45,201 bases of DNA from Candidatus Omnitrophota bacterium (GCA_026387165.1 JAPLMG010000015.1:1-45201); one strand, 5' to 3'. Numbered from the stretch's first letter, positions 2,204-21,035 are shown. The notes: generated by a model not told the origin, from the letters alone. Numbers and translations are program-made.

Positions 2204-2816
2204 AAGATCGATACTGCCGGCTATTAAAAAACTTGGGCATCAGGTATTTACCACGCACGAATTGTCTTTGGCGTCGGGAAGATCGCTTTCCGTGGTAACC
2301 CAATCTCTCAATAACCTGGTAAGAGAAGGAGTTGTTATTAAAATACGCAGGGGCGTTTGGGCCGAAGAGGGTATTGGAGCGATAAGCCCTTATGCCGTGA
2401 TACCGTATCTGTTTCCCGCCCATCGGGCATATGTCTCATTTATAAGCGCGCTCCATATATATGGCATCATAGAGCAGATCCCGCTGGTAACGACAGTCGC
2501 ATCAACGGCCCACGCCGGGATCATCAAGACGAAGATAGGCACATTTTATGTGCATCATATAACGCCGTCATTCTTTTGCGGGTTCGGTTGGTATAAAGGC
2601 AGCGGCAGTTTCCTGATAGCGGAACCGGAGAAGGCGTTAGTAGACAGCTTATACATTTCGGCGTATAAAGGAAAACGGTTCGGGCGTTTTCCCGAGCTGC
2701 GCTTTCCAAAAACATTCAGTTTTAAAAAAGTTAAAGAATGGATAAACAAGATCCCCAGCCCGAACACCCGTAAGTATGTCAGGAAACAACTGAAAGAAGT
2801 TCACGCCGCCAAATAG
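2196..2816 (+). CDS. abiEi: AbiEi-family antitoxin / wHTH transcriptional regulator (COG5340-like)
   Basis: 206-aa ORF with an N-terminal wHTH-like segment (FTTHELSLASGRSLSVVTQSLNNLVREGVVIKIRRGVW). The typical AbiEi core is also present: AYVSFISALHIYGIIEQIP ... AEPEKALVDSLY. It is translationally coupled to abiEii. Confidence 0.8.
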   Translation: MRRRSILPAIKKLGHQVFTTHELSLASGRSLSVVTQSLNNLVREGVVIKIRRGVWAEEGIGAISPYAVIPYLFPAHRAYVSFISALHIYGIIEQIPLVTTVASTAHAGIIKTKIGTFYVHHITPSFFCGFGWYKGSGSFLIAEPEKALVDSLYISAYKGKRFGRFPELRFPKTFSFKKVKEWINKIPSPNTRKYVRKQLKEVHAAK

Positions 2817-2898
2817 GCACGTTTTTTGCACATCTCAAGACCCACTTTTTTACACTCCTAATCAATCCGCTAACTTTTTAATGTAACTCCTTGTGGAC

Positions 2899-3029
2899 TA
2901 TAATGTTGCAACTTTGTTAAGACTTAAAAAAGCCATAAATCCCATATTGACTTATAATGTATATATGTTACACTCCATGTGTAAGGATGAATAAAAAGAC
3001 AGTTATTAACACATAGTAAGACAAGAGGA
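2899..3029 (+). promoter_or_regulatory. AT-rich leader of the giant gene with -10-like boxes and a Shine-Dalgarno
   Basis: TATAATGT occurs twice (2899-2906 and 2953-2960), and TTGACT at 2947-2952 abuts the second copy. The direct repeat TTACACTCC is at 2850-2858 and 2968-2976. AGAGGA at 3024-3029 lies 9 nt before ATG 3039. No convincing -35 sits at correct spacing, so the promoter call is weak. The SD is good. Confidence 0.35.
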
Positions 3030-3038
3030 ATCTCCAAA

Positions 3039-6000: not shown

Positions 6001-9000
6001 AATCTTTCCGGATCTTCAAGAACGCCTTGCAGGCAGAGCTTAATAAGATAAGAAGCCTCGTTCGCGGCCTCGTCGAGATGTGTAAGGATCTACCGGATGA
6101 TGAAGTTCCGGAAGTTGTCCAAGAGCTGAAAGGGGTTTATGAGCCGGTAGACCCGGGAGAAGGTGTCCCTATAGATGTAGGACGGCTTGTTGATAAAATG
6201 CTTGGAGATAGGCAGATCACGTTTGCTTTGGCGCTTCTGCGTAATATAGATAGAATGGCGAGAGCTGGTAGAAGAGAAGAAGCTATTGAATCGATGAAAA
6301 AATTTGACAGTTTCTTCCCGTCCGATAGTGATGCGATGAAAGATCCCGGGGTAATGGCCGAACGCGGCAGAATAAGAACACTATTAAACATAGATGAAGG
6401 AATATATATCCGCGAGAAACCAGGGAAAGGCCCGGGACTAAAAGGCACAATAAATCTTTTATGGCTCGGAGCGGGGATAACATTCCTCTACCATATGGTC
6501 AAGTCGGCAACACCGGCGCTCGCCGAAACAGGGCAAGGGGTGCAAGCGATAATGGGTTCCGGGATCCATGAGGGCGCTAGAGCCGGACTCGCTGCTATAA
6601 GTACAGGTAATCTTGCCGTCGCGATCTTCGTCGCAGTGGCGGCATTTTTGATATGTATGGAAGACTTTGGTATTTCCAAGCGTAAGCAGCCCGCCCCGCT
6701 GTTTCCCGCGGGTAAGACCATGCTGACCGGTCAACCGCTCGAATGGCAAACGCCAAAGTTCCTTTCGCTGGATAATACGCTTGGAATAATTAACTTCATA
6801 GGCATCATGGCGGTTGCCGAATGCGCAATCGGCGCAGGTATAGGTCTCTTGGGTTTCTGGACGGCCATAGGGGTGTCGTTCGCTTTCGAGTTGGTCATAA
6901 TAAAGACGATCGCAAGATACACGTCCCTAATAGATCTTAAAAAGCATCCTTTCCTGAATATGGCTATTGCTATCCTTTACAATAAGATATTTTCGAAAGT
7001 TTTTATAGGGGCCGCGGCTCTTCTCCTTATCAACATGGCGCGGCCGCCAACGCAGGGAGAAGAGATCCGAGCCATGGTATATACCGGCCAGTCCCGGCCG
7101 ATGTGGAACAGCATCTACCGGATAGTCATGTTCATTGCGCTGAACTTTTTCATATACGCCTTTCTGGTCGTTCTCGGCAGAGCGATAAGGAAGTGGAAGA
7201 AGGAGCCTCTGCCGGAAAGCAATGTGAATGAGAAAGATAGGTCATTCTACAGGAGGCTCAATCTCTTTTTAGGGATAGGCAATATTTCGATACCGGCAAT
7301 AATTCTCATGTTATTTTGGCAAAGGTACGTTAGAATACTGCCCGCCGCTTTTCGGATAGCGGTTCTTTCCTTGGGCACAGTAGTTCTGCTGATGATGTCG
7401 CTCTCAGCCTTAAAATCATATTTCAGCAATAGGAAGGCATGGGCCATGGTCGAGCTGAGCGAACGCATCATAACTTCGAGACGGGATCGCCCGGTAGACT
7501 GGTTGCTTAGAGGGCTCATGAGAAGGTCCAAAATTGGCGCGGGCATTTCTCTTGAGGAGGCAGATAAAGCCAATACTAATCTTAGATTGATAGCCATCGC
7601 TCTGGACGAGCTTGCCCGCAAACTGCGTCTCGGAGGAGAATGGGCCGTAGATGCGGTTATAGCAAAGGCAAACTCTGTCTGGAATAGATTTGACGGCATG
7701 AAAGCATTGGAGAAGGCCGATGATAAAGATGCTATAAAGCTACTTGTGCGCAATAGGGCAAAATTAGGGAGTCTTATTTATAAAAAGACGGCGTCTAATC
7801 TGGATCGGATAAATGCTTCTATAGGTGGTATCTTCGGAGCGGGCATTCTCGCAAGAGCGATATATGAAAGACTTATCAGGGGCGAGACGCCCCTTCATGA
7901 GCCAGGCGTAATACAAGCGGGGATAGGAAATAACCTTTTAGTGCTGTTTGCCGTACTGGCGGCTGTCGTTACAGCTATTGTCATAGTGGTAAAAAAGCTC
8001 AAGGGAACGGCAAAGCAGATCGGTACTGTCAAAGAAGAGAATGCCGCAACGAAAAATGCCAGACGTAGGATTAGAGGAGCAAGTACTGCAATAGAAAACG
8101 CGAAAAGACGCGGGGAAATATTAAGAGAGGCTCAGGCAAAACTCTTAGTAGATAGTTTATATGCCTGCTTAGTGCCGGGGATGCCTCTGGATGTGGCAGA
8201 CGATCTAAAGGGCGCTGTAAGAGAAGTAGAAAGAGCCTGTGGAAAAACATTGACCTCCGCCGTGCCTGCAGAAAAACCCAAAGAGAAACCCGGCCGGACA
8301 GTGCAATCTGCCATTCTCGCGACAGGGCTCGGCATGAAAGTATTGAGCGTATTGAATGTGCTTAATCTCGATCCGGCCGCTGCCGCGTTATTCGGCATAA
8401 TAGGATTAGCGCTCGCCGCAGTAGCGACTATGAGCTTCGCATTTACCAATAGAGCGAATATCCTCTTGTTCTTCGCCCCGCCGGTTCCGGCCCGCGGGCC
8501 TCCGGGCGCTCGTAGACCGGAAGCTGCTCGTCAGCCCGGTAGAGCCGCTCAGCCGCAGCCATCGGCAATAACACCACGGCAAATTTCAACCTCAAAACCT
8601 ACCTTCATCCAGGAGATACCGCTCGAATCCCGCGCGGCACGCCCCAGCGATCCTCAGCAAGCCGCGTTCTATAACGCCCTAAAAGAGCGCGGAATGACCA
8701 TTTCAAAAGGCCAGTTGGCCGCGATAATCGAAAATACCGAAGCGATAGAAGAAGGCCGGAAGATGGTATTCGACCACGCCGCGACAGGCGGCGGTAAAAC
8801 AGTCATAGGCTATGGCACTGCTTATCTCTGGGTTGCGGGAGAACGGGGCAGGCGCGCCTTTGTAGCAACGGCCAAAGATTATGATTCAAAAGACAATGCC
8901 GAGGAAGCGCAAAATGTGTTCTTGACTGATGCCTTAAAAGATAAAAAAATACGCGTTGCTTATATTACAGGCGGTGAAGGCAAAAGAGGCGAAGGCAGGG

Positions 9001-12000
9001 TGGCAAACATATATGATTATGATACGGGGGGTTGGCGTGAGGTGCCGGAATCCCGGGCCTACGAAGATGCACAGGTAATATACGCGGATGAGACGTATCA
9101 CAGATTCTTCCTGCAATCCAAAGAAGGCGTAAGATTCGCGCGCGCGCCGGAACATCTTGGCAGGGTCCTGATGATACACGATGAAGCGGATAACACGCGC
9201 GTCCTGAACAGGACCCCATGCGTTATTTCAGGGGACCTGAAACCGGAAGCGGCCGCGGAAGTAAAGGATATGGAATTTGTCCATGCAAATATTTTGGCCG
9301 AACTGGGCATGAGGGGTGAGCCCGCGATAAAAAGAAGCACGCATTACTTCAAGTCAGACGATGACTCTTCCAGGACGACGCTCGACTGGATATTCGGCTA
9401 TCGGAAACTATTAGCGCTGGTCTTTTTCAAATACCGCGCCCAGATGAAACACAGGCCGTTCTCCGAATGGCGGAGGACGGTCGAGACAGCGCTCACGGCG
9501 CAGAATAACTACCTGCCGGACACCGCGCCGGTGCCGGATAATGGCAGGCATTTTAAATTTTATAAGGTCGACAGGGTTTACGGTGATGTCGTTTCGATAG
9601 AGAACGGCGACCCGAAATACGGCCAGGAGCTTCCCGGCGGGCTGCACGACTCTTTAAGGATCATCGCCAGGACCGCCGATCCGAGCTTAAGCGGCGTGAT
9701 CGAGCCGCGCGGCAGCCGTCAGACTATATCGAGGCTGACGGTTGAAAGCTCTGACGCGCTTCCCTGCATGAGGGCGACCGTTTTGATGACAGCCACGGGG
9801 CGCGAAGCGCTGGGGCAGCTATACCCGGACTTGAAATATGTGGCGGTAGAGAGCGCGTTCCCCGACAACAGGATCGTCAACGCGCCGGTATTCACGGATA
9901 CGGACCCGAATAAATGGAAAGCCATGATCGGCGAAATAGGCAGGCATTTGAGCGGCCCCCAACTCATAGATGTCAGGCACGAAGACATCGGTATCGTAGA
10001 GCAAAAATTGAGGGAGGCATTCGGCTCCCGCGTAGAAGTGGTTGTGTATAAAGGAACCCTGCCAGAGGGCCAGAGAACGGATATTATCGCCAATGCCGGG
10101 AAGCCGGGCCGCATAACACTGATAGATGATACGCTTACCAGAGGCGTCACCATAAAACTATTGGAAGAAGCGTCCAGGCAAGAGGGTCTGCATCTTTACC
10201 TCACACATATAAAATTATTCAAGATCCTCATCGACCAGTTAATAGGCCGTGTCGGCAGGCAGGGACTGCCCGGCACAGTCCACCAATTCTACTCAAAAGA
10301 AGATCTGCGCAAACTGGGGCTTTTGGTAAGCGAGAAGATCCGCGAGAATCTTGTAGAGCCCCTGATGAGAAGATTAGGCCGTCCTATCCCCGGTTCGGGC
10401 GGCGTTTATGAGGACACTGTGCCAGGCGGCAGGCGTAAGTTTGAGGATCTTGAAGGATTGTCAGGGATAGAGGAGGAGATCTTCGGCAGGGACCGTATAC
10501 TCGATACACATCTTGCGGAGACGATGTCGTCACACAGGCGCGAGATCTCAAGGGACGGCCGGATCTACGACGCCGCGGATAAAATATTTGAAGAGATGGC
10601 CGCGGATCCGGAGAGGACCGCAAAGGAAGCTCTCGAAATGATAAATAGTCCGCGCTCGCTGGAGCTTATCAGGCGCAGGGCAGTCTTAATTAAAAGATCA
10701 TCCGTAGAGAGGTCTCTGGCGGAATTATTTACATCCAGTATATTCTATGGCCTTGATGATCCGCAAAGGCAGGCGTTTGTTAGAGCGATAACGCAGCTTA
10801 TAGAAAGAGAAAGGATCGAAGAAGCGGCCGTTAAGATTCGCTCCAGGATCAGAGAAGCGGTCATCCTTCTCGTTGGGCCGCGGGTCGACAGAGCCAGGAC
10901 CGGATATATTACAGCCGCGGAAGAGATGAAGGATGACGGCGCGACAGAAATTGAAAGAAGCGCCGACCAGACTAAAGACGCGTCATTGACCGGCGCCGCG
11001 AAGGCCCGCTTTGAAGGAGAGAGGAAGAACGTAGCGACGATGCTTAAGGCCTCGGCGCTGGAGATGCTTGGCGGTGAGATAGAAGACAAGAGGGCGCAGC
11101 AAAAAGAGATAACCGTATTACCCGGCAAGGCAAGAGTCGCGCGCGTGTCCGTATACGGCGGCCTCACATCGCTCTATTACTATTATATATATCAAGGTAT
11201 AATCTCGCCTCTTCTGTCCAGTGGCGGGCTGGGCCGTTCGGTAGAAGGCCTCTTTAGTTTTCTGCCCGCGATATCGGGTTTAGGCCCGGCTGTTCTGACA
11301 GTGATAACGTTTACAGCTATTATCCTGGTCCTTACGCTAAGATCTTCTTACTTGAAAAGAATAGCGCAGATGAATGTCGCCGACATCAGGATGAAGTGCG
11401 TTCTTACAGGGCAGGAGCCGGCCTTAAAAGAACCGTTACTTTTCGGCAATTATCTTCTCTATAAGCATTTCTTAAATCCCGTGGCATTCATGACGCTGCC
11501 TGTCGCTTTGGTCCTCATGCTGTCCGCTACCTCACCTTTAATGCTGGGCCTTGTAGGCATGACTGTCACGCAGGCGCTAGTCGCCGCGGCGTTTTCAGGA
11601 GTATCGGGCCTGATAGCCTCTCTTCTTATCATGGTTGTCTACGGCAGGCAGAAAGTGCCCGGAAGCGAAAAGGAAGAGCCGCCCCTGGTTTGGGCGGAGA
11701 AATCCGTAAAGGGGTATAAGATCAACCTGGCTTCCATATCCCGGGGCGCCGCGCTGGTGATCGCCGCAAAAATATTATATCCCGCCCTGATTTCCGGCGG
11801 AATGATGAGCGTTTTAATAGCGCCCGTCATCGTGCTGGGCGCGGTATTGGCAAGCCATCTCCTTTTAAAACGCTTTTTCGCGGTCCAAAAAGGAGGAGGC
11901 ATTGAATCTAAAACATTTTTTGGAGGCAGAAGCTCACTTCTCGGATACGCGATCGGCGCCGGCCTGGCCGTTACGGTCCTGTCAATTGCCCTGAGCGCGA

Positions 12001-15000
12001 GCGGCGGTGTTGCCCTGTATGCGGGAATAGCCGGGCTTATAATGACAGGCGCGTATGCATTATCAGGCGCGATGCAATTTGCCGGACAATCGAAATCCGT
12101 CGTGACCAGGGCGGGGGTAGGACGAAAATATCTTGGCGAAAAGGGCTTTGCCAATATAATCCTGGGGGTCATCGAGAACGCCTCTATGAATCTTATCATG
12201 CTGGCGCCGGTAATACTTACGATCGCGCAATTCAATATAAAATCCTTCTTTATCGCTTCGGTAGCGCCTTCGGCGCTGGCGCTCTCGGGTTATATTTTAG
12301 CTCCTTTGTTCCTCCTGATCGGCGTCTATCTGATCCTGGCTTATAAAGATATCGTGCCCATGGTAAGGTCGAAAAAGGTCATGGCCGCCCTCGGTATCGC
12401 GTCAGCCGGAAGCGTTGCGCTGGGCGCGTACCGGCAAAATATTCAGGCAGCTACCGCCTCTCAGCAGGCGCTGGAAGATTATTTCACAAGGCTGGAAGAG
12501 AAGCTCGGCCCAAGCCGGGGGGTCAGTCCTGAGGTGGTTGCAAGACGTGATAGGCTTGTTGCGCAGGCGTACCGCGACCTGACCGCAGAGGCCCAGAAGA
12601 GCGTCACCATTTCTACAGATGCCATCATAGGGAAGATCGCTTCGGAGAGATTCAATCAAGCCCTGCAGCCGTACCTGGATAGTTACAATGCCGCGAGCGC
12701 AGCCGCGAATACCGCTTTGGCACAGAAAGATAAGCCCGATTTCAAGAAAGCCCAAGAGGAATTCGGCAAGGCCGCCGCCGCGCTTGCCGGGATAAATAAT
12801 ATCGATCCCAATCTCATGAAGTTTACAGAAATTACGGAGCCCAAAGGCTTTGTCTTAGCTCTAAACAGGGCGGCAAGATATATCGCGGGCGTGGCCAGGG
12901 TATCTCCCGACCGGGTGCCTTTCGGAGTTATAAGAAAAAATATTACTATCGCAGAGCAGATCGCGAAGCTGAATAAGCAGAAAGACGATATCGCAAAAGA
13001 GGCGCGGCTCTTTCCTTATAGAGAGCAATATAAGGAGGGTGTCAATAATGTAACCGCCGCCTTTTCCGGGGAAGGCCTTCCTGATTTTGCGGCCATAGAT
13101 AGCGCGTTTACAAAAGCAGCCGGCGCTCTTATCGAAATAAATAAGATAGATCCGAAGATCGTCACAGAAGAGCAGATCGGGAATTTGAAAAAGAAGCAAG
13201 AGGCGTATTCCAAGCTCGCGAAGTTCGCGACGCCGGAAGGCGGCATGGCAGCTGTCGGGCCGGCTGCTGGGCCGGGACCGGGCGCAGGCGCGCCTCCGCC
13301 TCCTCCGGAAGATAAGGCAGCTACGCAAGCTGCAGCGATCCCGGGCGCGCCGGGCATGGCGGCGCAGGCAATTGCCGCCGCTTCGATGGGTCAATTGCCG
13401 TCAACCACGGACCAACCCGATATAAAATTTGCCGTAACGCCGGAGATGGCGGGCGTCATAGCGCAAAACGCGAGTTATTTTGCCTACGATATCGGCGTGG
13501 ATAGGGCCACAGGCCTTCCGTATAACCACATAGTTCTTTCCGGCAACTCGATCTCTTCAACAGGCGCATACTGTAATCCCACCGACATAGGGCTATATCT
13601 GGATATAATGGCCTCCGTAGCCAACGGCAAAATTAAGATGAAAAGCGTGACGCCCCAGGAAGCATTGGGCAGAATTAAGAAGGCGCTGGGCACTTTATTA
13701 AATATACAAAAACGCGCCGCCGACAACTGGAAAGGTCTATTCAGCTGGTATCAATTTAGGGGCGGAAACGCGGTCAGGGATGAGGCGAGCAAAGTATCAG
13801 CCGTTGATAACGCAAACCTGTGCTGGTCTCTTGCCGCGGTTATCGGAGCTCTTCAGGGTGACCCCGCAAACAAAGGTATTGTAAATGCCGCGAATGATAT
13901 TATAAATGCTCAAGCCTCCGGATGGGCGGATCTTTATGACAGCGATAAAGGGCTAATGCGCGCCGGTTACGATTTAACGGGAAGAGGCTATTTAACATAC
14001 TGGCTCGACAGAAGATATAACGAAAGCAGGACCGCGACGGCGTGGGCTATACTGCACAGTAACGGTAAAGTGCCCGTAAGCGCCTTTACGAATATGAAAT
14101 ATCCGTCCAACCCTGAACAATACGCTACAAGTGACGGCAAAAATATCACTGGGCGCATGTCATGGGACGGCGCTATATTCCAGGCGCTGATGCCGCTATT
14201 GTGGATCGACGAGAACCGGATATCTCCGGATAGCTACGCAAGAGCGCACAGGGATACGGTCGAAGTCCAGATAGATCATGCGATGAAAACGAAAAAACTG
14301 CCCGCGCTGCTCTCGACATCATACGGGACGGACGGGAATTACAGGGCTTATGGTGTACCTGCCCTTGCGGAGACGGTAGTCAGTTTCGGAAATAAAAATC
14401 AAGTATTTGATGACGTCGCATCACCGCATACGTTGGCGCTTGCGGCGCTTGTTGATTATGACAGAGCTAGTGGTCTCATAACCAATCTCGAAAAGAAGCA
14501 TCCCAAGATAAAGACGCCGTATGGTTGGAGGGATGGCATAAATGCGCGCGGAGAAACGAGCGATACCATATGCGCGATCGACCAGGGCATGCTGGTTTTG
14601 GCGCTCCTGGGCCCGACGAATTCCGGTTATGTATCGGCTTATCTTAATAATGTCGAAGGGCGGATGGATCAGCTTTATTGGATCTACGGCGCAAAAAGGC
14701 CGGTAGCTGAAACCAAACCGAAAACCGAAGTTAAGGCTGCAGCGGAAACCAGGCCATCTGCCGAAACAGAGCCCGCTGCCGCAGCGCGCGCGGCGCCTAA
14801 GACGATAGGTTTTACAACTCTGCCGAAAGATATTGCCCAGCGGCTCGGCGCGAATCTGCTCGACAATATGGATAGATTTTCGGGTACTATAACCCCGGAG
14901 AAAAAAGAAGGGGTTTTTCAGATGCCGGCCGCAGAACATGGATGGACAGGAACGACAGTAGGCAATAAAAACTTAACCGGTTTCAAATACGCATATATCG

Positions 15001-18000
15001 AAGTGCGTAATACAGGCGGGGAAGATAAAACGTTTAAACTGGAGCTTAAGGGTATATTTGACGGCAAGAAGGTTGTGAGGCTGCCTAATGATGATAAATG
15101 GCATCTAATCCCCATAGAATTGCCAGGCGACGCCGCCTCACCGTTGGGTTATTTTGCCATATCCGATATTTTAAGCGCGTTTGAATTGAGAGGGGTATAT
15201 TTTTCCAAGGAGACGATAGAAATAGCGGCTCCTGAGGTCCAGAGGGTTCCTAAGCCGCAAGCGAAGCCGGCGGCAGCATCTGCTACAACGGCAACTGCGT
15301 CGGATGCGGCTACACCGGCGCCGGCGGTGACGTCCGCGCCTGCGACACAGCCTGCGCCTAAACCTGCGGTCAAGAAGAAACCTGTAGAGCAGGGAGCTCG
15401 CCCCACTACGTGGGAAGCGGCGCCTGCGCCCGCGCCGGCAGCAACTTCCGAAAAAGTCAGAGAAGATATCAGATCGTTATTCGTTTCGGCCGGCGCGGCA
15501 CTTGACGCGGCGGACAAAGCGCTTGATGCAAGAGACGCTGCCGGGGCGTCGAAGTCAATATCTGCGGCCAGCGGGAAATTCGGAGAACTCGTTTCGCTCT
15601 GGCAGCTGAATGAGCCCGTGGAAGAGAAGGCGCTGAAGGACCTGCAGGATCGCGTGCTCGACACGGCCGCCAGGCGCTCGAAAGAAGCGGAGCGTGAAAG
15701 ATCTATAAGTGGATGGTTAGGGTCGGTCCCGCAGCAGCTGCAGTGGGCGGCCGAACTTCTGCCCCCGCCAGCTAAGCCTGAACCAAAGGTGGCCGAACCT
15801 GAGCCGGTAGAGCGCGGCCTTAACATGTTATGCATAGCCGGGTTCTCTTTACTTCCGAACAGGGATCTGGAAACGTCCGTATCCCCGATATCAAATGACC
15901 TCGGATCAAGAGGTTATAAGGTAAGCCTCATAAAGCCGGGCGACCATATATTCCCGGATGGATTCGGAGAGTCGGGCGGGCACTATGTGGGAGAAGAGGC
16001 GTACATGGAGTGGTATGAATCGCACGACCCCGTTGTGCTCATCGGCACGGGCGCCTCGTCCGACGACGTCATGGGCGCGGCTAAAAAATTCATAGAGCTC
16101 GGCGGCAGGGCCGCGGATATCTTTATCGTACTCGTGGACGGCAATGCGGATTATGTAAAGAGCCTGCCTGATGGCGTGAAAGTATTGAGTTTTCATTCCG
16201 CGGCGTCGGGTGAGTTCGGGCCGATCAAAGGGGCCGCGAAGAATATAAGGATAGAAGGCGTCTCGCACAGAGATATCATAAAGGATAACGCTGTCGTACG
16301 GGGAAAGATAGTTTACGAGCTGTACGCCGCGCTCGAGGAGCGTGAACCGAGGCCGGTAAGGAAGGCGCCCGCAGCGCCCGTAAAGATCGCGGAGAATATT
16401 TTAGGTCTGATAGCCGATGCTGACGTCGCGCTTAAAATGGCGCGTGTAGAGCTCGCAAAGAATGAAGCCGGCAAAAACAGAGCGCGCATATATATTAAAA
16501 AAGCGGAGGACGCATTAAATAATCTTAAAAAACTGAAGGCGGAAGAAAAATATATATCGGCCCTCGGCGCTAGGATCGCCGCGTTTAACCGGCCTGCCGC
16601 CATTGAGCAAGACGATAAGATGGCCAGAAGAGATCCGGTGGTCGCGCAGGTTGAAGTATCCGAGATCGCCGGTATCATAGGCAGCGCTTTCCGCAAATAC
16701 GCATACAGCGATACCGCGGCAGGAAGCAAAGAGGGCGCTTACTTAAGTATGGATTCCCTTGCCGGGGAACTCGCGCTTGATATGCGTTATTATCTCGATT
16801 TCCAGCGGGATAAAGATGGTAAAAGCATAACGGCGCAGGACGTAAGGGAGGCCGCGGGCATAGCGTTAAGCGAGTGGCTCGCGAGGAATCCTGAAGCCGG
16901 CAATGATTTGCCCGGAATAATAGCCGATCTTATCACGGAAGAGACCGGGGTGATATTAAGGACGCTTTACATAGATGTTCCCGGATCCGAGGCAGAGGCA
17001 GCGGCCGACAATATTGCCGCCAGGGCCGCCGGGATGACGGGCAAGATCTCCGCCGGGATCGTAGGCAATGTCGCCTCCGCATTGACCGCAAAGCGTCCTG
17101 CACAGCCACCCGTGATGGAGATAAGAAGGCCGCTTAAAGCGAGAAGCCCTAAAGGCCGCAACAACGAATATGACATCAAATATAACGACTGGAGGCTGAT
17201 GGCCTATACTTTCGGAGAGGGCGCCGGCGCGAGAGATGGCGCGAGGTACGGATTGTTCGGGGCCGGCCACATAAAATACGGCTCAGGCGACGAATGGTTC
17301 CAGCCGAGGGACATCCCGGAAGCTGTCATGACAAGGAGAGACGGATTCTGGAAAGGATGTAAGAGGCTTCTCTTTAAAGAAGATATACAGGCCCTTAAGG
17401 ATAAGGGCTGGGAATTCTATAGTCCCGAAGAGGAGCCGCACATATCATACGAGAATATGACCGCCGCCGGTATCTTCATGGCGTCGCTGGAAAACATAGA
17501 TAATTATACAAGAATGAACGAAATAGCGAAGCAGCTGGGCATAGTCCTTACGGCTGACGACAAATTCCACCTGGATCTCATCGCGCAGGCCTCATTACCG
17601 GGAGGCGTGAGCGGCGGAGTCCAGCTTTGGTTCTATCTTAAGAACCCGGCCAAAGAGGTGAATGAAGAGATATCGTCGCAGAAAGAGAACCTGCAGAAGT
17701 TTGTCCGCTGTGACTATGTGCAGAAGATGCTCAACAATATATATGGCCTGAGGACGGCCCACAGGGAGGCGTCGGCGAGACTTAAGAACATGGAGAATTT
17801 CAAGGCGGAATTTGAGGAGATAGCAAAGCTCGCCGAGGCTAATAAGACGATAGAGAGAGCGGGATTTAAGATAGAGTCAACGAGAAAGATGATAGACGAT
17901 GCCATACGGACGGAGACCGATAAGATAATAGACGCGCGTACGGCGCTGAACAAGATAATGCGGCGCGCTCCCGAAGCTCCGTTTACTCTCAGCGAAGAGG

Positions 18001-21000
18001 AGTTCGTCGAATGGGACAGCCCTGAGTCGAAGAAAAGAGCTGATGTGCTGGAAAAGCAGATAACAGATAACATGGGCATGGCCCAGGCATCCTTCGCTTC
18101 CGAAGTCGGGTTAGCGAAAGCACATAAGAATCTGGGCGATCTGGGTTATGCGCTTGCCAAGGCCCGGAAGGAGCTGAGTATACTTCTGGGCATAAGCATC
18201 ATGTACGGATCCGACTCCGGAGCGAGCTCCGGCTTTATGCTGGAGTTCCGCAGGGACAAAAAGACAGATCTCATGGTATCCCGCCTGGGGGCGTTCAATG
18301 CGATCGCCGCGTTAAAGAATACCGAAGAGATGGCCGTGGTAAGAAGCGCCGTGCTCGCTAAAAGGCTTGATGCCATAAGAGAAGAGCTCGACTTTCTTAA
18401 TAAGAAATTGGCGCCCGCGACGCTAAAGATAAAAGAGGCCGAAGCCGAGCGTTACAAGACAACCGGGGATAAAGAAGGCCAGCCCCAGGTGCAGGTTGCC
18501 GATGTCAACGCCGCATATGCGGCGTACTTCTCCATACTGGATACTATCGCCCAGGCCCAGGCGGAGATAGAGAATATTGAGCGGGAAACCTCGACTCTCA
18601 AAAACTCGCTTACAGTCAAGACCAAAGAGATGGAGGATAAATTCAAGACGAAGGACAGCCTCATAGAGGCGCTCGTCAAGGCCGGGCAGGCCGAGATGAG
18701 GAAGCTTGACGCGACTCAAGTAACGCACATATCTCAAGATCCGCTATCCGAGATCGACGCCGGTATAAAAAATTCAGCCCAGGTCCTGGCGCTGGTGAAT
18801 GAAGAGACCGCCGCCAAGAGGGCCATGCAGGCGGTGCTTGCCCAGATACCTCAGGCCAAAAAATTCAAGGCGCTACTTAAGGAGAGGGAAGAGCTTGAAG
18901 CGGCGTATTATGAGGAGTACGAGAAGAGCCCTAACGAAGATACCGTAAAGAGGTTTATGGCCAAGAGCAGGGAGCTCGAGAAGAAGATAGACGTCATAAT
19001 GAATAACCTGCTCGATTTCGTGAATAAGACTGTTGAAGGTAAACAGGCGACGCTCGTGGGACAGAACTGGCTGGAAAAATTATTCAATGTCCGCAAGACG
19101 GTGAAATGCGAAGCGGTAGACATAGAGGGGTCGTTACCATCGGGCGGATTGTCTCTCAAGCTAAAGCTATTGATAGGTAAAGAATATTACGGTGAAGTGC
19201 GCCTCTTGAACCTCGCATGGCAGAAGGCGCAGAACAGGACCGTTAGCGCCAGGAATACGGTAGCACACAATATCGTTACGGCGCTGAATCAGATGAGGCA
19301 TACCAGGCTTTACCTCGCGGGAGAGAATAGCAGGCTTAAGGAGTCCGAGGCCGCGGCCAGGAGAATAGTAGAGAGGATCGCGGAATGGGAAAGCCGTCCG
19401 GATTCCGGAGAGCGGACGGAAGAGCTTAAAAAGCTTAAAGAGAACATGGCGAAAGAAGAAGCCCGCGGCGCGGAAATATCGATCAATGTCACAAGGGCCA
19501 AGACGCGCTTTAGCGAGCTGGAGATATCTTACAAGACCCTATTGGGCGTAGATCAGAAGACAGTTATTGATGTAAGCGTAATTATTGACTCATCGGACGA
19601 TAAGTTCAGGGACGCGGTAATGTTTGCGCTCTTTGATAAGGAAAAAGGACGGTTCGACAAGCGCCAGCTCAACAAGGAGAGGCAGATCAATATCGACATA
19701 CTCAGGGCCATAGACTACATGGCCAATGAAGATATACCTATACCGATAGAAATATTCATAGGCATGACAGGGGCGGGCATATACGCGGAATTGTTCAACG
19801 GAGACAAGAGGAGGCAGGTGGTCATCGGCAGAAAAGAGTCCGCCGGCGCTCTGAAGAGAGGGCTCGAGGCGTATAAGGACGAAGGCGCCGGGCTTTATAA
19901 TTCCAAACTCAACGCTGTAGACGAAAAAGATATAGCACTGGAACTTGCCGGACTTTTCCGCGGGAAGATAGAAAAAGCCGTTCTCGATGTCGAAAATGGC
20001 CCACGGGAAGAATCGGCATATGATGCGGACATCGACAGTCTCTCCCGAAAAGCGGACTATTTTAGGACGGTGCAGGACGAAGAGAGCGCCTTCGCGAACC
20101 ACCTCAACGCGTCCATAGTGGCCTCCGAACTCGACGACCCGGAAATTAAGGGCAAAGACACGAGAACTACCATAAGAGTTCCCGGCCTCAACAACCTGAC
20201 GATGAAGGATAAGAGCGCCGCGATAGAGGTTATGACTGCAAAAGAAGTGCTCAGCGCGGAGAAGGCGGCGTTCTTTTACAGGCCGCTCAGCGTATACGGA
20301 TTCGCGGTTATAGGATACGGCGCGCAGGGGGCTTATGTCAGCGGCGGCGGCGGAGCGGCCTCCGGCATCCCTGATACCGGTTCCAGCGGCAAATTGGGGC
20401 CATACGGTCCTATAATAGGCCCAAGCGGAGTCCCAGGCGGAGGCTCAGGCGGAGGCCCTGGCGCAATTCCAGGCGGAGGCAGCGGCAGCGGATCCGGCGC
20501 CAGCGCATCCAAAGGAGGCGGCGGAGGAGGCAGCAGTATCGCATTTAATGTAGGGTTGAACTTCGAGTATGAAATAAAAAAGCTGCTCAGCCAGGATCTC
20601 CCAAAAGCCAAAGAAAAATTAAAACTTTCAAAATTCGCTGAAGCCAAGGCCAACGGCGATAAGACGGTCATAGCGAGATCGATGGCGGCCAACATCATGT
20701 CCGAAGTCAACATGCTGGATTTGGCCAAGAGGCAGAAGCAAAGAGCCAGTGATGATAAGCTGCGGGTCGCCGGCCTATCCGACTCGTCCTTAAAAGGGAT
20801 CAGAAAATTGGGCGGGATGGAAGACGTGTCGGCGGAAGCGGACGTTTTTGTAAGAATATCCGAAAAAAGATCAAATCAGGCGCGGCTCGGGTACCAGACC
20901 GCCGCCGGCGAAACGAACGCCGATGTCATCATGACCCAAACGCAGAAAGAGACAATGGCTTTAAGTCCCGAGATGAGGGATCTTGTCGCGCCGTTCGCTT

Positions 21001-21035
21001 CGCGCGATCCGAGGATAAGAATACTTGAAAAATAG
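3039..21035 (+). CDS. Giant multi-domain membrane protein, part 1 (5,998 aa): signal anchor, TraB/ChaN-like, TM clusters, SecA-like ATPase, glycoside hydrolase-like, TolC/OEP-like
   Basis: Uninterrupted 17,997-nt ORF with a good SD. Protein-like composition throughout and several recognisable motifs (see sub-features). Antisense shadow ORFs cover it. An alternative in-frame start at ATG 3150 (M38) would place a classical signal peptide directly at the N-terminus. Confidence 0.92.
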   Translation: MNAWQARRKAPQSGDVEEVLSRGSLSTREELGARSLIMDLQSPRNKKWIRSIALVLVVCFINQDLVWAQEGTPVWSKGQGHSTGSGPGGNFAVKTQAVTPQGGIAIPKDVAVTKEVYKSTNGDARTVINIQDAHASLAAQESIASILDSLVTNYDLKLVAIEGSKGYIDTSLLKTFPDENIRKNTANYFMKKGKLSAGEFFSITSDKEISLYGIEDKRLYLENVEQFRKIQEINESTKKDIANLTAALENLKEKIYSKDLLLLDKNSVLHRDGKITFSERWDLVSKLAATQGVTYEKYENLSKLVESLKLEKKIDFQKANKERDALIDILSKKMVKTDLEQLVLRSLSFKQGKVSQGEYYLYLQELARHYGVDPEPYKGLITYTEYITLYESIDLVEIFEEVRKFEDSIKEKILKDDYQRKLHGFSRFVSLVSTLYELKLTGADTGELISYIPSLRGREAAEAISKGGIASLPSVARNDKELSISAETLAAFIKSASLKYGVAIEGGYDLGAIFAEIEPALSFYRTAEERNAAMLANTINEMQKNGQSVAALVTGGYHTKGLTEILKQRETSYLVILPKFDSSKGDRPYVAILTNKKEPYEKLLQTGDYYLATTSFFATQDNFNNAADIRAFIKELVLVAMAQAVLEEKNPKSVAEIWLNAYEGRQKQLGLRDSEVLFTRKELEGLIGSVEILTIEKGKTAVASIPTVSLRGEIGKEALYLKVVRAADETGVDIGVPTSGELASLIAAKKTLENRRPVVKPDDLEDRVARLEQETEKLKKYIKTQGPQDEALIIARLKEAGLFQYLVGQFEGQPADKITGDSLIAKLRAKGVRVRDFEGSAEVYGEVNSLLERVKAASASQLAITELATGGLITAARQRAIELAIGVDGKADILQVPPAVPVAPAPAPAAEAEASEAQRALILACLTEPLNENYKRLIDIFTTRKQTRSISDKELVIIDEKLKTALAGQLSGILPGNPAVAENLIDDESFRIFKNALQAELNKIRSLVRGLVEMCKDLPDDEVPEVVQELKGVYEPVDPGEGVPIDVGRLVDKMLGDRQITFALALLRNIDRMARAGRREEAIESMKKFDSFFPSDSDAMKDPGVMAERGRIRTLLNIDEGIYIREKPGKGPGLKGTINLLWLGAGITFLYHMVKSATPALAETGQGVQAIMGSGIHEGARAGLAAISTGNLAVAIFVAVAAFLICMEDFGISKRKQPAPLFPAGKTMLTGQPLEWQTPKFLSLDNTLGIINFIGIMAVAECAIGAGIGLLGFWTAIGVSFAFELVIIKTIARYTSLIDLKKHPFLNMAIAILYNKIFSKVFIGAAALLLINMARPPTQGEEIRAMVYTGQSRPMWNSIYRIVMFIALNFFIYAFLVVLGRAIRKWKKEPLPESNVNEKDRSFYRRLNLFLGIGNISIPAIILMLFWQRYVRILPAAFRIAVLSLGTVVLLMMSLSALKSYFSNRKAWAMVELSERIITSRRDRPVDWLLRGLMRRSKIGAGISLEEADKANTNLRLIAIALDELARKLRLGGEWAVDAVIAKANSVWNRFDGMKALEKADDKDAIKLLVRNRAKLGSLIYKKTASNLDRINASIGGIFGAGILARAIYERLIRGETPLHEPGVIQAGIGNNLLVLFAVLAAVVTAIVIVVKKLKGTAKQIGTVKEENAATKNARRRIRGASTAIENAKRRGEILREAQAKLLVDSLYACLVPGMPLDVADDLKGAVREVERACGKTLTSAVPAEKPKEKPGRTVQSAILATGLGMKVLSVLNVLNLDPAAAALFGIIGLALAAVATMSFAFTNRANILLFFAPPVPARGPPGARRPEAARQPGRAAQPQPSAITPRQISTSKPTFIQEIPLESRAARPSDPQQAAFYNALKERGMTISKGQLAAIIENTEAIEEGRKMVFDHAATGGGKTVIGYGTAYLWVAGERGRRAFVATAKDYDSKDNAEEAQNVFLTDALKDKKIRVAYITGGEGKRGEGRVANIYDYDTGGWREVPESRAYEDAQVIYADETYHRFFLQSKEGVRFARAPEHLGRVLMIHDEADNTRVLNRTPCVISGDLKPEAAAEVKDMEFVHANILAELGMRGEPAIKRSTHYFKSDDDSSRTTLDWIFGYRKLLALVFFKYRAQMKHRPFSEWRRTVETALTAQNNYLPDTAPVPDNGRHFKFYKVDRVYGDVVSIENGDPKYGQELPGGLHDSLRIIARTADPSLSGVIEPRGSRQTISRLTVESSDALPCMRATVLMTATGREALGQLYPDLKYVAVESAFPDNRIVNAPVFTDTDPNKWKAMIGEIGRHLSGPQLIDVRHEDIGIVEQKLREAFGSRVEVVVYKGTLPEGQRTDIIANAGKPGRITLIDDTLTRGVTIKLLEEASRQEGLHLYLTHIKLFKILIDQLIGRVGRQGLPGTVHQFYSKEDLRKLGLLVSEKIRENLVEPLMRRLGRPIPGSGGVYEDTVPGGRRKFEDLEGLSGIEEEIFGRDRILDTHLAETMSSHRREISRDGRIYDAADKIFEEMAADPERTAKEALEMINSPRSLELIRRRAVLIKRSSVERSLAELFTSSIFYGLDDPQRQAFVRAITQLIERERIEEAAVKIRSRIREAVILLVGPRVDRARTGYITAAEEMKDDGATEIERSADQTKDASLTGAAKARFEGERKNVATMLKASALEMLGGEIEDKRAQQKEITVLPGKARVARVSVYGGLTSLYYYYIYQGIISPLLSSGGLGRSVEGLFSFLPAISGLGPAVLTVITFTAIILVLTLRSSYLKRIAQMNVADIRMKCVLTGQEPALKEPLLFGNYLLYKHFLNPVAFMTLPVALVLMLSATSPLMLGLVGMTVTQALVAAAFSGVSGLIASLLIMVVYGRQKVPGSEKEEPPLVWAEKSVKGYKINLASISRGAALVIAAKILYPALISGGMMSVLIAPVIVLGAVLASHLLLKRFFAVQKGGGIESKTFFGGRSSLLGYAIGAGLAVTVLSIALSASGGVALYAGIAGLIMTGAYALSGAMQFAGQSKSVVTRAGVGRKYLGEKGFANIILGVIENASMNLIMLAPVILTIAQFNIKSFFIASVAPSALALSGYILAPLFLLIGVYLILAYKDIVPMVRSKKVMAALGIASAGSVALGAYRQNIQAATASQQALEDYFTRLEEKLGPSRGVSPEVVARRDRLVAQAYRDLTAEAQKSVTISTDAIIGKIASERFNQALQPYLDSYNAASAAANTALAQKDKPDFKKAQEEFGKAAAALAGINNIDPNLMKFTEITEPKGFVLALNRAARYIAGVARVSPDRVPFGVIRKNITIAEQIAKLNKQKDDIAKEARLFPYREQYKEGVNNVTAAFSGEGLPDFAAIDSAFTKAAGALIEINKIDPKIVTEEQIGNLKKKQEAYSKLAKFATPEGGMAAVGPAAGPGPGAGAPPPPPEDKAATQAAAIPGAPGMAAQAIAAASMGQLPSTTDQPDIKFAVTPEMAGVIAQNASYFAYDIGVDRATGLPYNHIVLSGNSISSTGAYCNPTDIGLYLDIMASVANGKIKMKSVTPQEALGRIKKALGTLLNIQKRAADNWKGLFSWYQFRGGNAVRDEASKVSAVDNANLCWSLAAVIGALQGDPANKGIVNAANDIINAQASGWADLYDSDKGLMRAGYDLTGRGYLTYWLDRRYNESRTATAWAILHSNGKVPVSAFTNMKYPSNPEQYATSDGKNITGRMSWDGAIFQALMPLLWIDENRISPDSYARAHRDTVEVQIDHAMKTKKLPALLSTSYGTDGNYRAYGVPALAETVVSFGNKNQVFDDVASPHTLALAALVDYDRASGLITNLEKKHPKIKTPYGWRDGINARGETSDTICAIDQGMLVLALLGPTNSGYVSAYLNNVEGRMDQLYWIYGAKRPVAETKPKTEVKAAAETRPSAETEPAAAARAAPKTIGFTTLPKDIAQRLGANLLDNMDRFSGTITPEKKEGVFQMPAAEHGWTGTTVGNKNLTGFKYAYIEVRNTGGEDKTFKLELKGIFDGKKVVRLPNDDKWHLIPIELPGDAASPLGYFAISDILSAFELRGVYFSKETIEIAAPEVQRVPKPQAKPAAASATTATASDAATPAPAVTSAPATQPAPKPAVKKKPVEQGARPTTWEAAPAPAPAATSEKVREDIRSLFVSAGAALDAADKALDARDAAGASKSISAASGKFGELVSLWQLNEPVEEKALKDLQDRVLDTAARRSKEAERERSISGWLGSVPQQLQWAAELLPPPAKPEPKVAEPEPVERGLNMLCIAGFSLLPNRDLETSVSPISNDLGSRGYKVSLIKPGDHIFPDGFGESGGHYVGEEAYMEWYESHDPVVLIGTGASSDDVMGAAKKFIELGGRAADIFIVLVDGNADYVKSLPDGVKVLSFHSAASGEFGPIKGAAKNIRIEGVSHRDIIKDNAVVRGKIVYELYAALEEREPRPVRKAPAAPVKIAENILGLIADADVALKMARVELAKNEAGKNRARIYIKKAEDALNNLKKLKAEEKYISALGARIAAFNRPAAIEQDDKMARRDPVVAQVEVSEIAGIIGSAFRKYAYSDTAAGSKEGAYLSMDSLAGELALDMRYYLDFQRDKDGKSITAQDVREAAGIALSEWLARNPEAGNDLPGIIADLITEETGVILRTLYIDVPGSEAEAAADNIAARAAGMTGKISAGIVGNVASALTAKRPAQPPVMEIRRPLKARSPKGRNNEYDIKYNDWRLMAYTFGEGAGARDGARYGLFGAGHIKYGSGDEWFQPRDIPEAVMTRRDGFWKGCKRLLFKEDIQALKDKGWEFYSPEEEPHISYENMTAAGIFMASLENIDNYTRMNEIAKQLGIVLTADDKFHLDLIAQASLPGGVSGGVQLWFYLKNPAKEVNEEISSQKENLQKFVRCDYVQKMLNNIYGLRTAHREASARLKNMENFKAEFEEIAKLAEANKTIERAGFKIESTRKMIDDAIRTETDKIIDARTALNKIMRRAPEAPFTLSEEEFVEWDSPESKKRADVLEKQITDNMGMAQASFASEVGLAKAHKNLGDLGYALAKARKELSILLGISIMYGSDSGASSGFMLEFRRDKKTDLMVSRLGAFNAIAALKNTEEMAVVRSAVLAKRLDAIREELDFLNKKLAPATLKIKEAEAERYKTTGDKEGQPQVQVADVNAAYAAYFSILDTIAQAQAEIENIERETSTLKNSLTVKTKEMEDKFKTKDSLIEALVKAGQAEMRKLDATQVTHISQDPLSEIDAGIKNSAQVLALVNEETAAKRAMQAVLAQIPQAKKFKALLKEREELEAAYYEEYEKSPNEDTVKRFMAKSRELEKKIDVIMNNLLDFVNKTVEGKQATLVGQNWLEKLFNVRKTVKCEAVDIEGSLPSGGLSLKLKLLIGKEYYGEVRLLNLAWQKAQNRTVSARNTVAHNIVTALNQMRHTRLYLAGENSRLKESEAAARRIVERIAEWESRPDSGERTEELKKLKENMAKEEARGAEISINVTRAKTRFSELEISYKTLLGVDQKTVIDVSVIIDSSDDKFRDAVMFALFDKEKGRFDKRQLNKERQINIDILRAIDYMANEDIPIPIEIFIGMTGAGIYAELFNGDKRRQVVIGRKESAGALKRGLEAYKDEGAGLYNSKLNAVDEKDIALELAGLFRGKIEKAVLDVENGPREESAYDADIDSLSRKADYFRTVQDEESAFANHLNASIVASELDDPEIKGKDTRTTIRVPGLNNLTMKDKSAAIEVMTAKEVLSAEKAAFFYRPLSVYGFAVIGYGAQGAYVSGGGGAASGIPDTGSSGKLGPYGPIIGPSGVPGGGSGGGPGAIPGGGSGSGSGASASKGGGGGGSSIAFNVGLNFEYEIKKLLSQDLPKAKEKLKLSKFAEAKANGDKTVIARSMAANIMSEVNMLDLAKRQKQRASDDKLRVAGLSDSSLKGIRKLGGMEDVSAEADVFVRISEKRSNQARLGYQTAAGETNADVIMTQTQKETMALSPEMRDLVAPFASRDPRIRILEK
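3150..3243 (+). other. Signal peptide / signal-anchor segment
   Basis: MDLQSPRNKKWIRSIALVLVVCFINQDLVWA|QE has a basic n-region, a hydrophobic h-region and a VWA-Q cleavage-like site. Confidence 0.6.
3412..4790 (+). other. TraB/GumN/ChaN (Tiki-superfamily)-like domain
   Basis: N-terminal INIQDAHASLAAQESI...LVAIEG and C-terminal EERNAAMLANTINEMQKNGQSVAALVTGGYHTKGL resemble the paired (G)xxH / E / ER / GxxH motifs of this superfamily. This is from memory, with a long insert between the halves. Confidence 0.35.
4397..4475. repeat. 79-bp nested palindromic (REP/MITE-like) element carried in-frame inside the giant ORF
   Basis: Outer inverted repeat GTCATTGCGAG (4397-4407) / CTCGCAATGAC (4465-4475). 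Inner inverted repeat CGAAGCAATC (4421-4430) / GATTGCTTCG (4442-4451). Arm hairpin GGCCGC-GAA-GCGGCC (4407-4421). It is translated as SLRGREAAEAISKGGIASLPSVARND. Confidence 0.6.
6445..8480 (+). other. Transmembrane cluster 1 (multiple hydrophobic helices with one soluble helical insert)
   Basis: Example segments: LLWLGAGITFLYHMV, LAVAIFVAVAAFLICM, IINFIGIMAVAECAIGAGIGLLGFWTAIGVSFAFELVII, IVMFIALNFFIYAFLVVLG, ISIPAIILMLFW, LLVLFAVLAAVVTAIVIVV, LFGIIGLALAAVATMSFAF. Confidence 0.7.
8660..10330 (+). other. Divergent SecA-type DEAD motor ATPase module
   Basis: Walker A ATGGGKT (8781-8801). MIHDEADNTRVLNRTPCVISG (DEAD at 9180-9191) compares with SecA DExD..L.DEARTPLIISG. LMTATG compares with GMTGTA. 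IIANAGKPGRITLIDDTLTRGVTIKL compares with IIAQAG..GAVTIATNMAGRGTDIKL. IGRVGRQGLPGTVHQFYSKEDL (10242 onward) compares with [21 protein letters not shown]. An insert of about 185 aa sits at the PPXD position. Confidence 0.75.
11150..12430 (+). other. Transmembrane cluster 2
   Basis: Example segments: LGPAVLTVITFTAIILVLTL, VAFMTLPVALVLMLSA, ALVAAAFSGVSGLIASLLIMVVY, MSVLIAPVIVLGAVLASHLLL, GAGLAVTVLSIALSA, LIMLAPVILTIAQF, ILAPLFLLIGVYLILAY. Confidence 0.7.
13420..14650 (+). other. (alpha/alpha)6-barrel glycoside hydrolase-like domain (putative glucoamylase / DUF3131 / GH144 beta-1,2-glucanase-like)
   Basis: NPTDIGLYLDIMASVANG...GLFSWYQF...VSAVDNANLCWSLAAVIGAL ... PYGWRDGIN...ICAIDQGMLVLALLG. This follows the pattern I recall for the family: TSxTNIGLYL ... 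G.(L/F)YNWYD ... VSTVDSGNL ... YGF.D.(F/I)N ... IDQG. Confidence 0.55.
19140..19555 (+). other. TolC/OEP-type repeat 1
   Basis: GGLSLKLKLLIGKEYYGEVRLLNLAWQKAQNRTVSARNTVAHNIVTALNQMRHTRLYL...ISINVTRAKTRFSELEISYKTLLG follows the outer-membrane efflux protein repeat pattern: beta strands, then paired long helices ending in ...L..LLG. Confidence 0.45.
20340..20538 (+). repeat. Gly/Ser/Pro-rich low-complexity tract
   Basis: SGGGGAASGIPDTGSSGKLGPYGPIIGPSGVPGGGSGGGPGAIPGGGSGSGSGASASKGGGGGGSS, followed by a beta-strand-like IAFNVGLNFEYEI. Confidence 0.8.

Follow-up and report, generated by a model that had tools for sequence, protein, structure and literature searches.

We found that the giant protein encoded by a contig of a Candidatus Omnitrophota bacterium carries a two-module cassette (window positions 13440-15206), composed of a glycoside hydrolase family 192 (GH192)-type barrel and a family-specific beta-jelly-roll, the latter a probable glycan binder. 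Taken as a whole, the data are best explained by a tethered endo-beta-1,2-glucanase acting on exogenous beta-1,2-glucan, a reading that we consider fairly probable. The window, i.e. the whole stretch of DNA that was analysed, is the entire 45.2-kb contig (45,201 nucleotides; C251; GCA_026387165.1 JAPLMG010000015.1:1-45201) of a 1.93-Mb metagenome-assembled genome (MAG) with a completeness of 77%. It is dominated by a giant open reading frame (ORF), P0001, which makes up the N-terminal portion of a reading frame exceeding 14,000 codons; a single TAG separates it from the remainder, located at positions 21057-45200. Residue n of P0001 corresponds to window position 3039+3(n-1). The ORF and the cassette with its linkers are as follows:

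3039-21035, + strand, frame 1: giant ORF P0001 (5998 aa)
13440-14693, + strand: GH192-like (alpha/alpha)6-barrel catalytic domain (aa 3468-3885), recognised with Pfam, phmmer, AlphaFold2 (AF2) and Foldseek
14694-14825, + strand: flexible linker rich in Thr, Pro, Ala and Glu (aa 3886-3929), AF2 pLDDT <50
14826-15206, + strand: beta-jelly-roll module (aa 3930-4056), consisting of two short helices followed by nine strands
15228-15458, + strand: Ala/Pro/Thr-rich linker after the cassette (aa 4064-4140)

Both linkers agree with their description in an earlier, model-made annotation of the window (hereafter the original prediction).

The catalytic domain can be assigned with high confidence to the GH192 type of the SGL clan (clan GH-S). 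A phmmer search of the PDB aligned aa 3472-3878 with residues 44-433 of the 447-residue chain 8XUJ_A (E=1.3e-60), i.e. EeSGL1 of Endozoicomonas elysicola. This enzyme (Nakajima et al. 2025, PMC12102758), one of the founding members of GH192, is specific for beta-1,2-glucan, which it cleaves in endo fashion and with inversion. The identity to the E. elysicola locus is approximately 37%. The second PDB match, to the GH189 structure 8WY1, was weak (E=9e-7) and fragmentary, comprising two short stretches, and no GH144 structure was reported by this search at E<=1. The Pfam family PF10091 ("Glycoamylase") matched aa 3658-3856 only (35.2 bits, cut-off 27; the genome search gave 38.2 bits). The domain contains no stop codons or frameshifts, and the AF2 model, built from 22 aligned sequences, reached a pLDDT >90 over model residues 11-420. 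Foldseek comparison with the PDB again placed 8XUJ first (TM-score 0.89, normalised to the target; root-mean-square deviation 3.2 Å), followed by GH162 TfSGL, the GH189 cyclization domain of Cgs, "putative glucoamylases", GH144 CpSGL and XcSGL, and GH194 PgSGL3. All of the best 20 matches belong to the SGL clan, being either enzymes acting on beta-1,2-glucan or uncharacterised "putative glucoamylase" relatives.

The original prediction had likened the domain to the group of putative glucoamylases, DUF3131 proteins and beta-1,2-glucanases. The domain is indeed a member of this superfamily, and the CAZy-family and (alpha/alpha)6 match that was to be sought by structure prediction and Foldseek was found in 8XUJ. 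The designation "GH144-like" is accurate at the level of the clan, but not of the family, the nearest relative being the GH192 enzyme EeSGL1; the GH144 structures were weaker fold matches (TM-score 0.69-0.76).

The window domain resembles the GH192 enzymes EeSGL1, PgSGL1 and PgSGL2 (PMC12102758) in its full-length (alpha/alpha)6 barrel and its probable extracytoplasmic location. However, EeSGL1 is a free, single-domain, secreted gammaproteobacterial protein of 438 aa, whereas the window domain, whose activity is predicted, is an internal module of a protein of at least 5998 aa, flanked on both sides by long low-complexity linkers and followed by the beta-jelly-roll. The fold is also common to GH144 (CpSGL 5GZH/5GZK, XcSGL 8XUL), GH162 (TfSGL 6IMU), GH189 (8WY1) and GH194 (PgSGL3 8XUK), in which the acid Glu occupies an equivalent position, and PF10091 spans part of the window domain. 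These four families differ from it in their lower similarity (TM-score 0.58-0.76, identity 13-17%), and only GH189 is detectable by sequence.

Mutants of EeSGL1 in E221 (general acid) and D149 (candidate base) show <0.1% activity (PMC12102758). We re-derived this numbering from locus L019 of E. elysicola: with the second Met as residue 1, position 149 falls on the D of AVDNG and position 221 on the E of ANESR. The corresponding residues of the window domain, two further conserved positions and the five motifs listed in the original prediction are located as follows:

13575-13601, + strand: NPTDIGLYL (aa 3513-3521)
13740-13757, + strand: FSWYQF (aa 3568-3573)
13797-13820, + strand: SAVDNANL (aa 3587-3594)
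13806-13808, + strand: Asp3590 (in SAVDNANL), aligned with EeSGL1 D149 (AVDNGN), candidate general base
14022-14024, + strand: Glu3662 (in YNESR), aligned with EeSGL1 E221 (ANESR), general acid
14178-14180, + strand: Phe3714 (in WDGAIFQ), probable clan-defining Phe (XcSGL F286)
14340-14342, + strand: Tyr3768 (in DGNYRAYG), probable clan-defining Tyr (XcSGL Y367)
14520-14543, + strand: YGWRDGIN (aa 3828-3835)
14574-14594, + strand: AIDQGML (aa 3846-3852)

All five motifs were recovered in the ORF at 3039-21035 (frame 1), far beyond chance. In alignments of 16, 6 and 22 homologs Glu3662 was invariant and Asp3590 invariant or nearly so, i.e. the acid and base positions, whose lack of conservation would have spoken against the original prediction, are conserved. 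The window sequence retains 41 of the 41 invariant columns of the 22-sequence family alignment. Phe3714 and Tyr3768, also invariant or nearly so, stand in the expected order after the Glu, and this order suggests their equivalence to F286 and Y367 of XcSGL, the clan-defining residues, the latter of which stacks at subsite -3 (PMC12102758).

Conservation of the Asp and Glu shows that the active site is intact, but it does not settle the type of reaction, since the retaining GH189 transglycosylase uses the same two acidic positions (PMC12102758). The barrel might therefore be active in another reaction or on another substrate, either as a beta-1,2-glucan transglycosylase or cyclase of the GH189 kind, or as a hydrolase of a different beta-glucan or envelope glycan. 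The low identity to the characterised enzyme would allow this, as would the maximum-likelihood tree, in which the giant-protein copies form a clade apart from the gammaproteobacterial clade holding EeSGL1. We nevertheless regard such a change of function as very unlikely: the similarity to GH189 is far weaker than that to GH192 (E=9e-7 versus 1e-60; TM-score 0.58 versus 0.89) and its chain is matched only in fragments, the particularly long alpha5 and the extra alpha4-alpha5 helices of TiCGS are conserved only within GH189, and the six SGL-clan hydrolases assayed in that study are all specific for beta-1,2-glucan (PMC12102758). Beta-1,2-glucanase activity of the window domain is a prediction that we consider likely.

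"Candidatus Omnitrophota" MAGs proved to be the nearest genomic relatives of the GH192-like domain. When 1.84 billion representative proteins were searched exhaustively, only 439 matches were obtained at E<=1e-3; the best two were giant proteins of 7976 aa (P0002) and 7316 aa (identity 49% and 45%, respectively), followed by standalone enzymes of ~450-470 aa (identity ~42%). A word-index search with a 636-aa cut-out gave, owing to a limit of the index, no more than two PF10091 proteins, both of them weak matches. The genome scan was run with alignment A2, the 16-sequence alignment A1 being too diverse for this purpose. The GH192-like profile was detected at E<=1e-25 in 107 of the 301 sampled Omnitrophota genomes, mostly in ORFs of 800-12,500 aa, and PF10091 in 74 of 121 genomes, often in 3-8 copies per genome of 1.5-3 Mb. 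A metagenome scan with the single protein gave no match; with A2 it gave seven loci, one of which is identical to a locus (L009) found in an Omnitrophota genome (G249).

In three other Omnitrophota (L008, L009/G249 and G004), of which G004 and G249 belong to the same family as the window genome, giant ORFs keep the domain together with the same Asp and Glu. The window domain forms a clade with these giant-protein copies (support 98/95), and it is this clade that we take as the supported result of the tree; the rows of genomes G191 and G031 (wrong ORF, branch 8.96) and the midpoint root were disregarded.

A module with free-standing relatives, embedded in a giant protein, could also be the remnant of a captured gene for a formerly free-standing secreted enzyme, now vestigial or merely structural or adhesive. 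Giant Omnitrophota proteins are indeed mosaics, the cassette occurs free-standing in proteins of ~900 aa, and the G004 and L008 copies have no beta module. Moreover, a Tat-like "SRRGFIGAMFGAG" (twin-arginine-like TSRRGFIGAMFGAGVLSAIP) immediately precedes the GH192-like domain of P0002 at residues ~6390-6420, and the position of this motif, far into a giant protein, suggests the capture of an exported enzyme that once stood alone. Loss of function after capture is, however, extremely unlikely, given that all family-invariant residues are intact (both catalytic acids included), that the frame is uninterrupted and the AF2 model confident, and that the domain is conserved among the giant orthologs (45-52% identity).

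The location of the cassette was approached through the hydropathy of P0001. A Kyte-Doolittle scan revealed two clusters of transmembrane helices (aa ~1190-1800 and ~2740-3130), the second of which is joined to the catalytic domain as follows:

11289-12428, + strand: transmembrane cluster 2 (aa 2751-3130), approximately 10 hydrophobic helices
12429-13439, + strand: helical spacer, then Pro/Gly/Ala-rich linker (aa 3131-3467), leading from the last transmembrane helix to the catalytic domain

The domain does not lie directly after transmembrane cluster 2, as had been stated, because approximately 340 residues of spacer and linker intervene. Successive loops of the cluster contain 7, 0, 6, 0, 5, 0, 5, 1 and 4 Lys and Arg residues. 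According to the positive-inside rule, this very regular alternation would mean that the last helix (aa 3114-3130, after VRSKK) runs from inside to outside. Over aa 3135-5998 no 19-residue window attains a Kyte-Doolittle mean of 1.5. An OEP/TolC match starts right after the TAG, and the G004 ortholog has the order transmembrane cluster, short spacer, GH192 domain, Ala/Pro linker and TolC-like sequence. Many of the standalone relatives carry an N-terminal hydrophobic leader with a lipobox-like Cys (judged by eye), and the ~900-aa Omnitrophota homologs carry N-terminal signal anchors. The cassette would thus be extracytoplasmic, and probably periplasmic; the loop charges, the lack of a later hydrophobic segment, the TolC-like module and the leader-bearing relatives all favour the exported side, on which the original prediction had placed it.

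The second module of the cassette includes the motifs FQMPAAEHGW (at 14916) and WHLIPIELP (15099-15125) within a beta-rich segment. In the first AF2 model the region following the linker was of moderate confidence only; a model based on a 13-sequence alignment (A5, 12 homologs) reached a pLDDT of 86.3 and a pTM of 0.82. Its Foldseek matches were jelly-roll carbohydrate-binding modules (CBMs) of families CBM6, CBM29, CBM16, CBM61, CBM86 and CBM11 and other beta-sandwich domains (TM-score 0.45-0.63, E ~2e-4 to 1e-3). The Pfam search gave no match for the window module at E<=1, and none that was relevant among the 12 homologs. The predicted structure is that of a CBM-like fold of an undescribed family, which probably binds glycan. 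It shares general fold and size with the above CBMs and is likewise joined by a linker to a glycoside hydrolase, but it differs from them in lacking Pfam or CBM sequence membership, in the low TM-scores and in forming a family of its own tied to GH192-like domains. The original prediction of a carbohydrate-binding beta-sandwich of about 140 aa holds with respect to the fold, a beta-jelly-roll whose nearest relatives are CBMs, but not to the size, which is ~105-130 aa (aa 3930/3954-4056).

When aa 3925-4075 were searched in the 301 Omnitrophota genomes, homologs were detected in 36 of them (best E 4e-15, identity 29-39%). Of 38 matches outside the window, 26 have a GH192-like match 0.8-1.1 kb upstream of them, on the same strand and in the same ORF or contig, which identifies the two modules as a conserved cassette. 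Its carriers are typically proteins of 830-970 aa with an N-terminal signal anchor. In the window's own family the module was found by sequence in none of 15 genomes, and the G249/L009 ortholog has a very divergent one (20% identity). Two Omnitrophota proteins of ~900 aa (L059:1169-3835 and L060:1167-3989, from genomes G186 and G044) combine a signal anchor and a divergent GH192-like barrel with two further parts, namely a beta-rich module in the middle (motif FDLEIKSDD) and, at the C-terminus, a homolog of the window's jelly-roll; these enzymes may carry two related beta modules each.

The origin of the putative substrate was considered in the light of the genomic context. Six further PF10091 ORFs are present in the window's own genome (1.9 Mb), four of them strong (146-248 bits), and those with a complete N-terminus begin with a signal-peptide-like hydrophobic segment:

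C306:13195-14424; C258:1-750; C247:1-4506: PF10091 ORFs
C109:6897-8819; C173:3159-4238, - strand: PF10091 ORFs
C258:2608-4695: PF10091 ORF of 696 aa, nearest to the GH189 cyclization domain (E=1e-38)

The last of these has an N-terminal beta-rich module that appears CBM-like by eye. The same genome encodes a GH94 gene (C100:1-2526), cut by the contig end, which matched cyclic beta-1,2-glucan synthase (E=4e-101). Synthesis of the Cgs type was considered for this ORF and rejected, as its intact ortholog of ~2050 aa (L029:12081-18233, genome G033) matches, with its C-terminal 750 aa, only the phosphorylase domain of the synthase (E=4e-107, residues 2033-2771), with no match over the glycosyltransferase (GT) family GT84 or cyclization parts of the synthase; its N-terminal ~1285 aa had no Pfam or PDB match. 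In G033 the gene belongs to a cluster encoding, in order, a GH144-like protein, a hypothetical protein, SBP_bac_1, a response regulator, a histidine kinase, a CBM11-like protein, a second GH144-like protein, a TPR protein and GH94. In G004 (C4:9000-75500; L043-L045) a 12,493-aa giant ORF and a 2673-aa ORF are followed directly by a same-strand cluster whose ORF sizes and order match those of G033 and which shows PF10091 and GH94 matches. We regard this cluster as a putative locus for beta-1,2-glucan catabolism.

The same context bears on the possibility that the glucanase serves the cell's own envelope, trimming, releasing or quality-controlling a self-made periplasmic or exported beta-glucan in conjunction with the TolC-like channel. 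BcsZ acts in this way for cellulose synthase. The domain does adjoin a TolC-like module, and the giant protein P0002 contains, by eye, a GT2-like stretch rich in transmembrane segments in addition to its GH192 domain. However, neither the own genome nor 20 genomes of the family yielded a match to MdoG, there was no strong match to an OpgH-type GT2 (PF13632 matches were weak, <=41 bits, and in small ORFs), searches of both halves of the giant gene revealed no GT domain, and the match of the Cgs-like gene is confined to the GH94 phosphorylase part. With no MdoG, no strong OpgH-like GT2 and no GT84 part, nothing points to synthesis of beta-1,2-glucan by the organism itself. The cluster next to the giant gene in G004, with its solute-binding protein, GH144-like genes and phosphorylase, looks catabolic. 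A role in the own envelope is thus unlikely, and the genomic context, taken together, makes it more likely that exogenous beta-1,2-glucan is catabolised than that a self-made one is remodelled.

Within the tethered-glucanase model, flexible Pro/Ala-rich linkers would hold the cassette on the extracytoplasmic side, between the second cluster of inner-membrane helices and the TolC-like outer-membrane module. The barrel would act as an endo-acting, anomer-inverting beta-1,2-glucanase, like EeSGL1, with Asp3590 serving as the base and Glu3662 as the acid, which would protonate the scissile bond via the 3-OH group of the subsite +2 glucose. Beta-1,2-glucan from outside the cell would be cut into sophoro-oligosaccharides, which could feed the other SGL-clan enzymes of the genome, an importer with a solute-binding protein and the GH94 phosphorylase. 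Gram-negative bacteria keep beta-1,2-glucan in the periplasm. The substrate could be the osmoregulated periplasmic or cyclic glucans of Gram-negative neighbours, prey or host, or free environmental glucan. This feeding role on an exogenous substrate is put forward tentatively, as close to an even call.

Several points weigh against this model. At 37% identity the specificity or chain-length preference could differ from that of EeSGL1, and hydrolysis is not proven by an Asp/Glu pair that is common to GH189. The topology was derived from crude hydropathy and a charge count, and a location in the own periplasm would leave the route of an exogenous polymer unexplained. In the tree, the long-branched outgroups fall within the wider group, so that GH192 is not clearly delimited relative to the giant-protein clade. 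The missing glucan synthase is weak evidence, because the genome is only 77% complete. Finally, the synteny with a catabolic cluster was observed in one relative (G004), and the window contig ends inside the giant gene.

The arrangement of modules also permits a bolder, rather unlikely interpretation, in which the SecA-like motor, inner-membrane helices, GH192 domain with its binding module and TolC-like outer-membrane duct form a trans-envelope machine in a single polypeptide, the glucanase being its periplasmic part. Such a machine would draw in or pass beta-1,2-glucan (e.g. osmoregulated glucans from the periplasm of an attached Gram-negative host or prey) and feed the adjacent phosphorolytic pathway.

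Downstream of the cassette, the segment at window positions 15816-16340 (aa 4260-4434) shows hydrophobic strands alternating with helices (VVLIGTGASSDD..., IFIVLVDGNADY...) and has the look of a small alpha/beta domain (Rossmann or flavodoxin-like); Pfam and PDB sequence searches gave no match for it. Two matches were rejected, namely one to NCBIfam MXAN_5187_fam (17 bits against a cut-off of 200), which extended over the Pro/Ala linkers and was ascribed to low complexity, and one to SHMT (E=0.28), which was regarded as noise.

The giant proteins of Omnitrophota are among the largest known, and to our knowledge almost nothing about them has been tested biochemically. The "Archaeovorin-type" giant membrane proteins, as described in two papers (West-Roberts et al. 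2023, bioRxiv 10.1101/2023.11.21.568195; Seymour et al. 2023, PMC10066038), resemble the protein studied here in their many transmembrane helices, their divergent SecA-like domain and their content of glycosyl hydrolases. The genes downstream of the giant gene include those for solute-binding proteins and glycoside hydrolases, as is also the case in the relative G004. The two papers refer to glycosyl hydrolases and cell-wall degradation in general terms; term searches for GH144, DUF3131 and beta-1,2-glucanase retrieved no passage from either paper or from a 2026 Omnitrophota preprint, and none of the papers searched mentions Omnitrophota together with GH144 or "1,2-glucanase". The GH192 family is known and the catalytic domain is a new member of it, while the novelty lies in the architecture, i.e. 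an internal module between the inner-membrane helices and the TolC-like module of a giant protein, combined with an unclassified jelly-roll family.

The degradation of glycans or of the cell envelope, as originally proposed, remains plausible, and the family similarity narrows it to beta-1,2-glucan rather than peptidoglycan or capsule, so that a general "cell-wall degradation" is replaced by one specific and unusual predicted substrate. The module is compact, with ~600 aa, and intact, and it shares 37% identity with an enzyme whose structure is solved and whose assay is simple, which makes the hypothesis directly testable. The beta-jelly-roll is a candidate for a new family of carbohydrate-binding modules. 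Were the trans-envelope interpretation true, beta-1,2-glucan would be a staple food of these Omnitrophota and their giant proteins feeding devices. The expansion of the SGL clan to 3-8 copies in many small genomes, together with the phosphorolytic cluster of the relative, suggests that the use of beta-1,2-glucan may be a major, so far undiscussed trait of the phylum.

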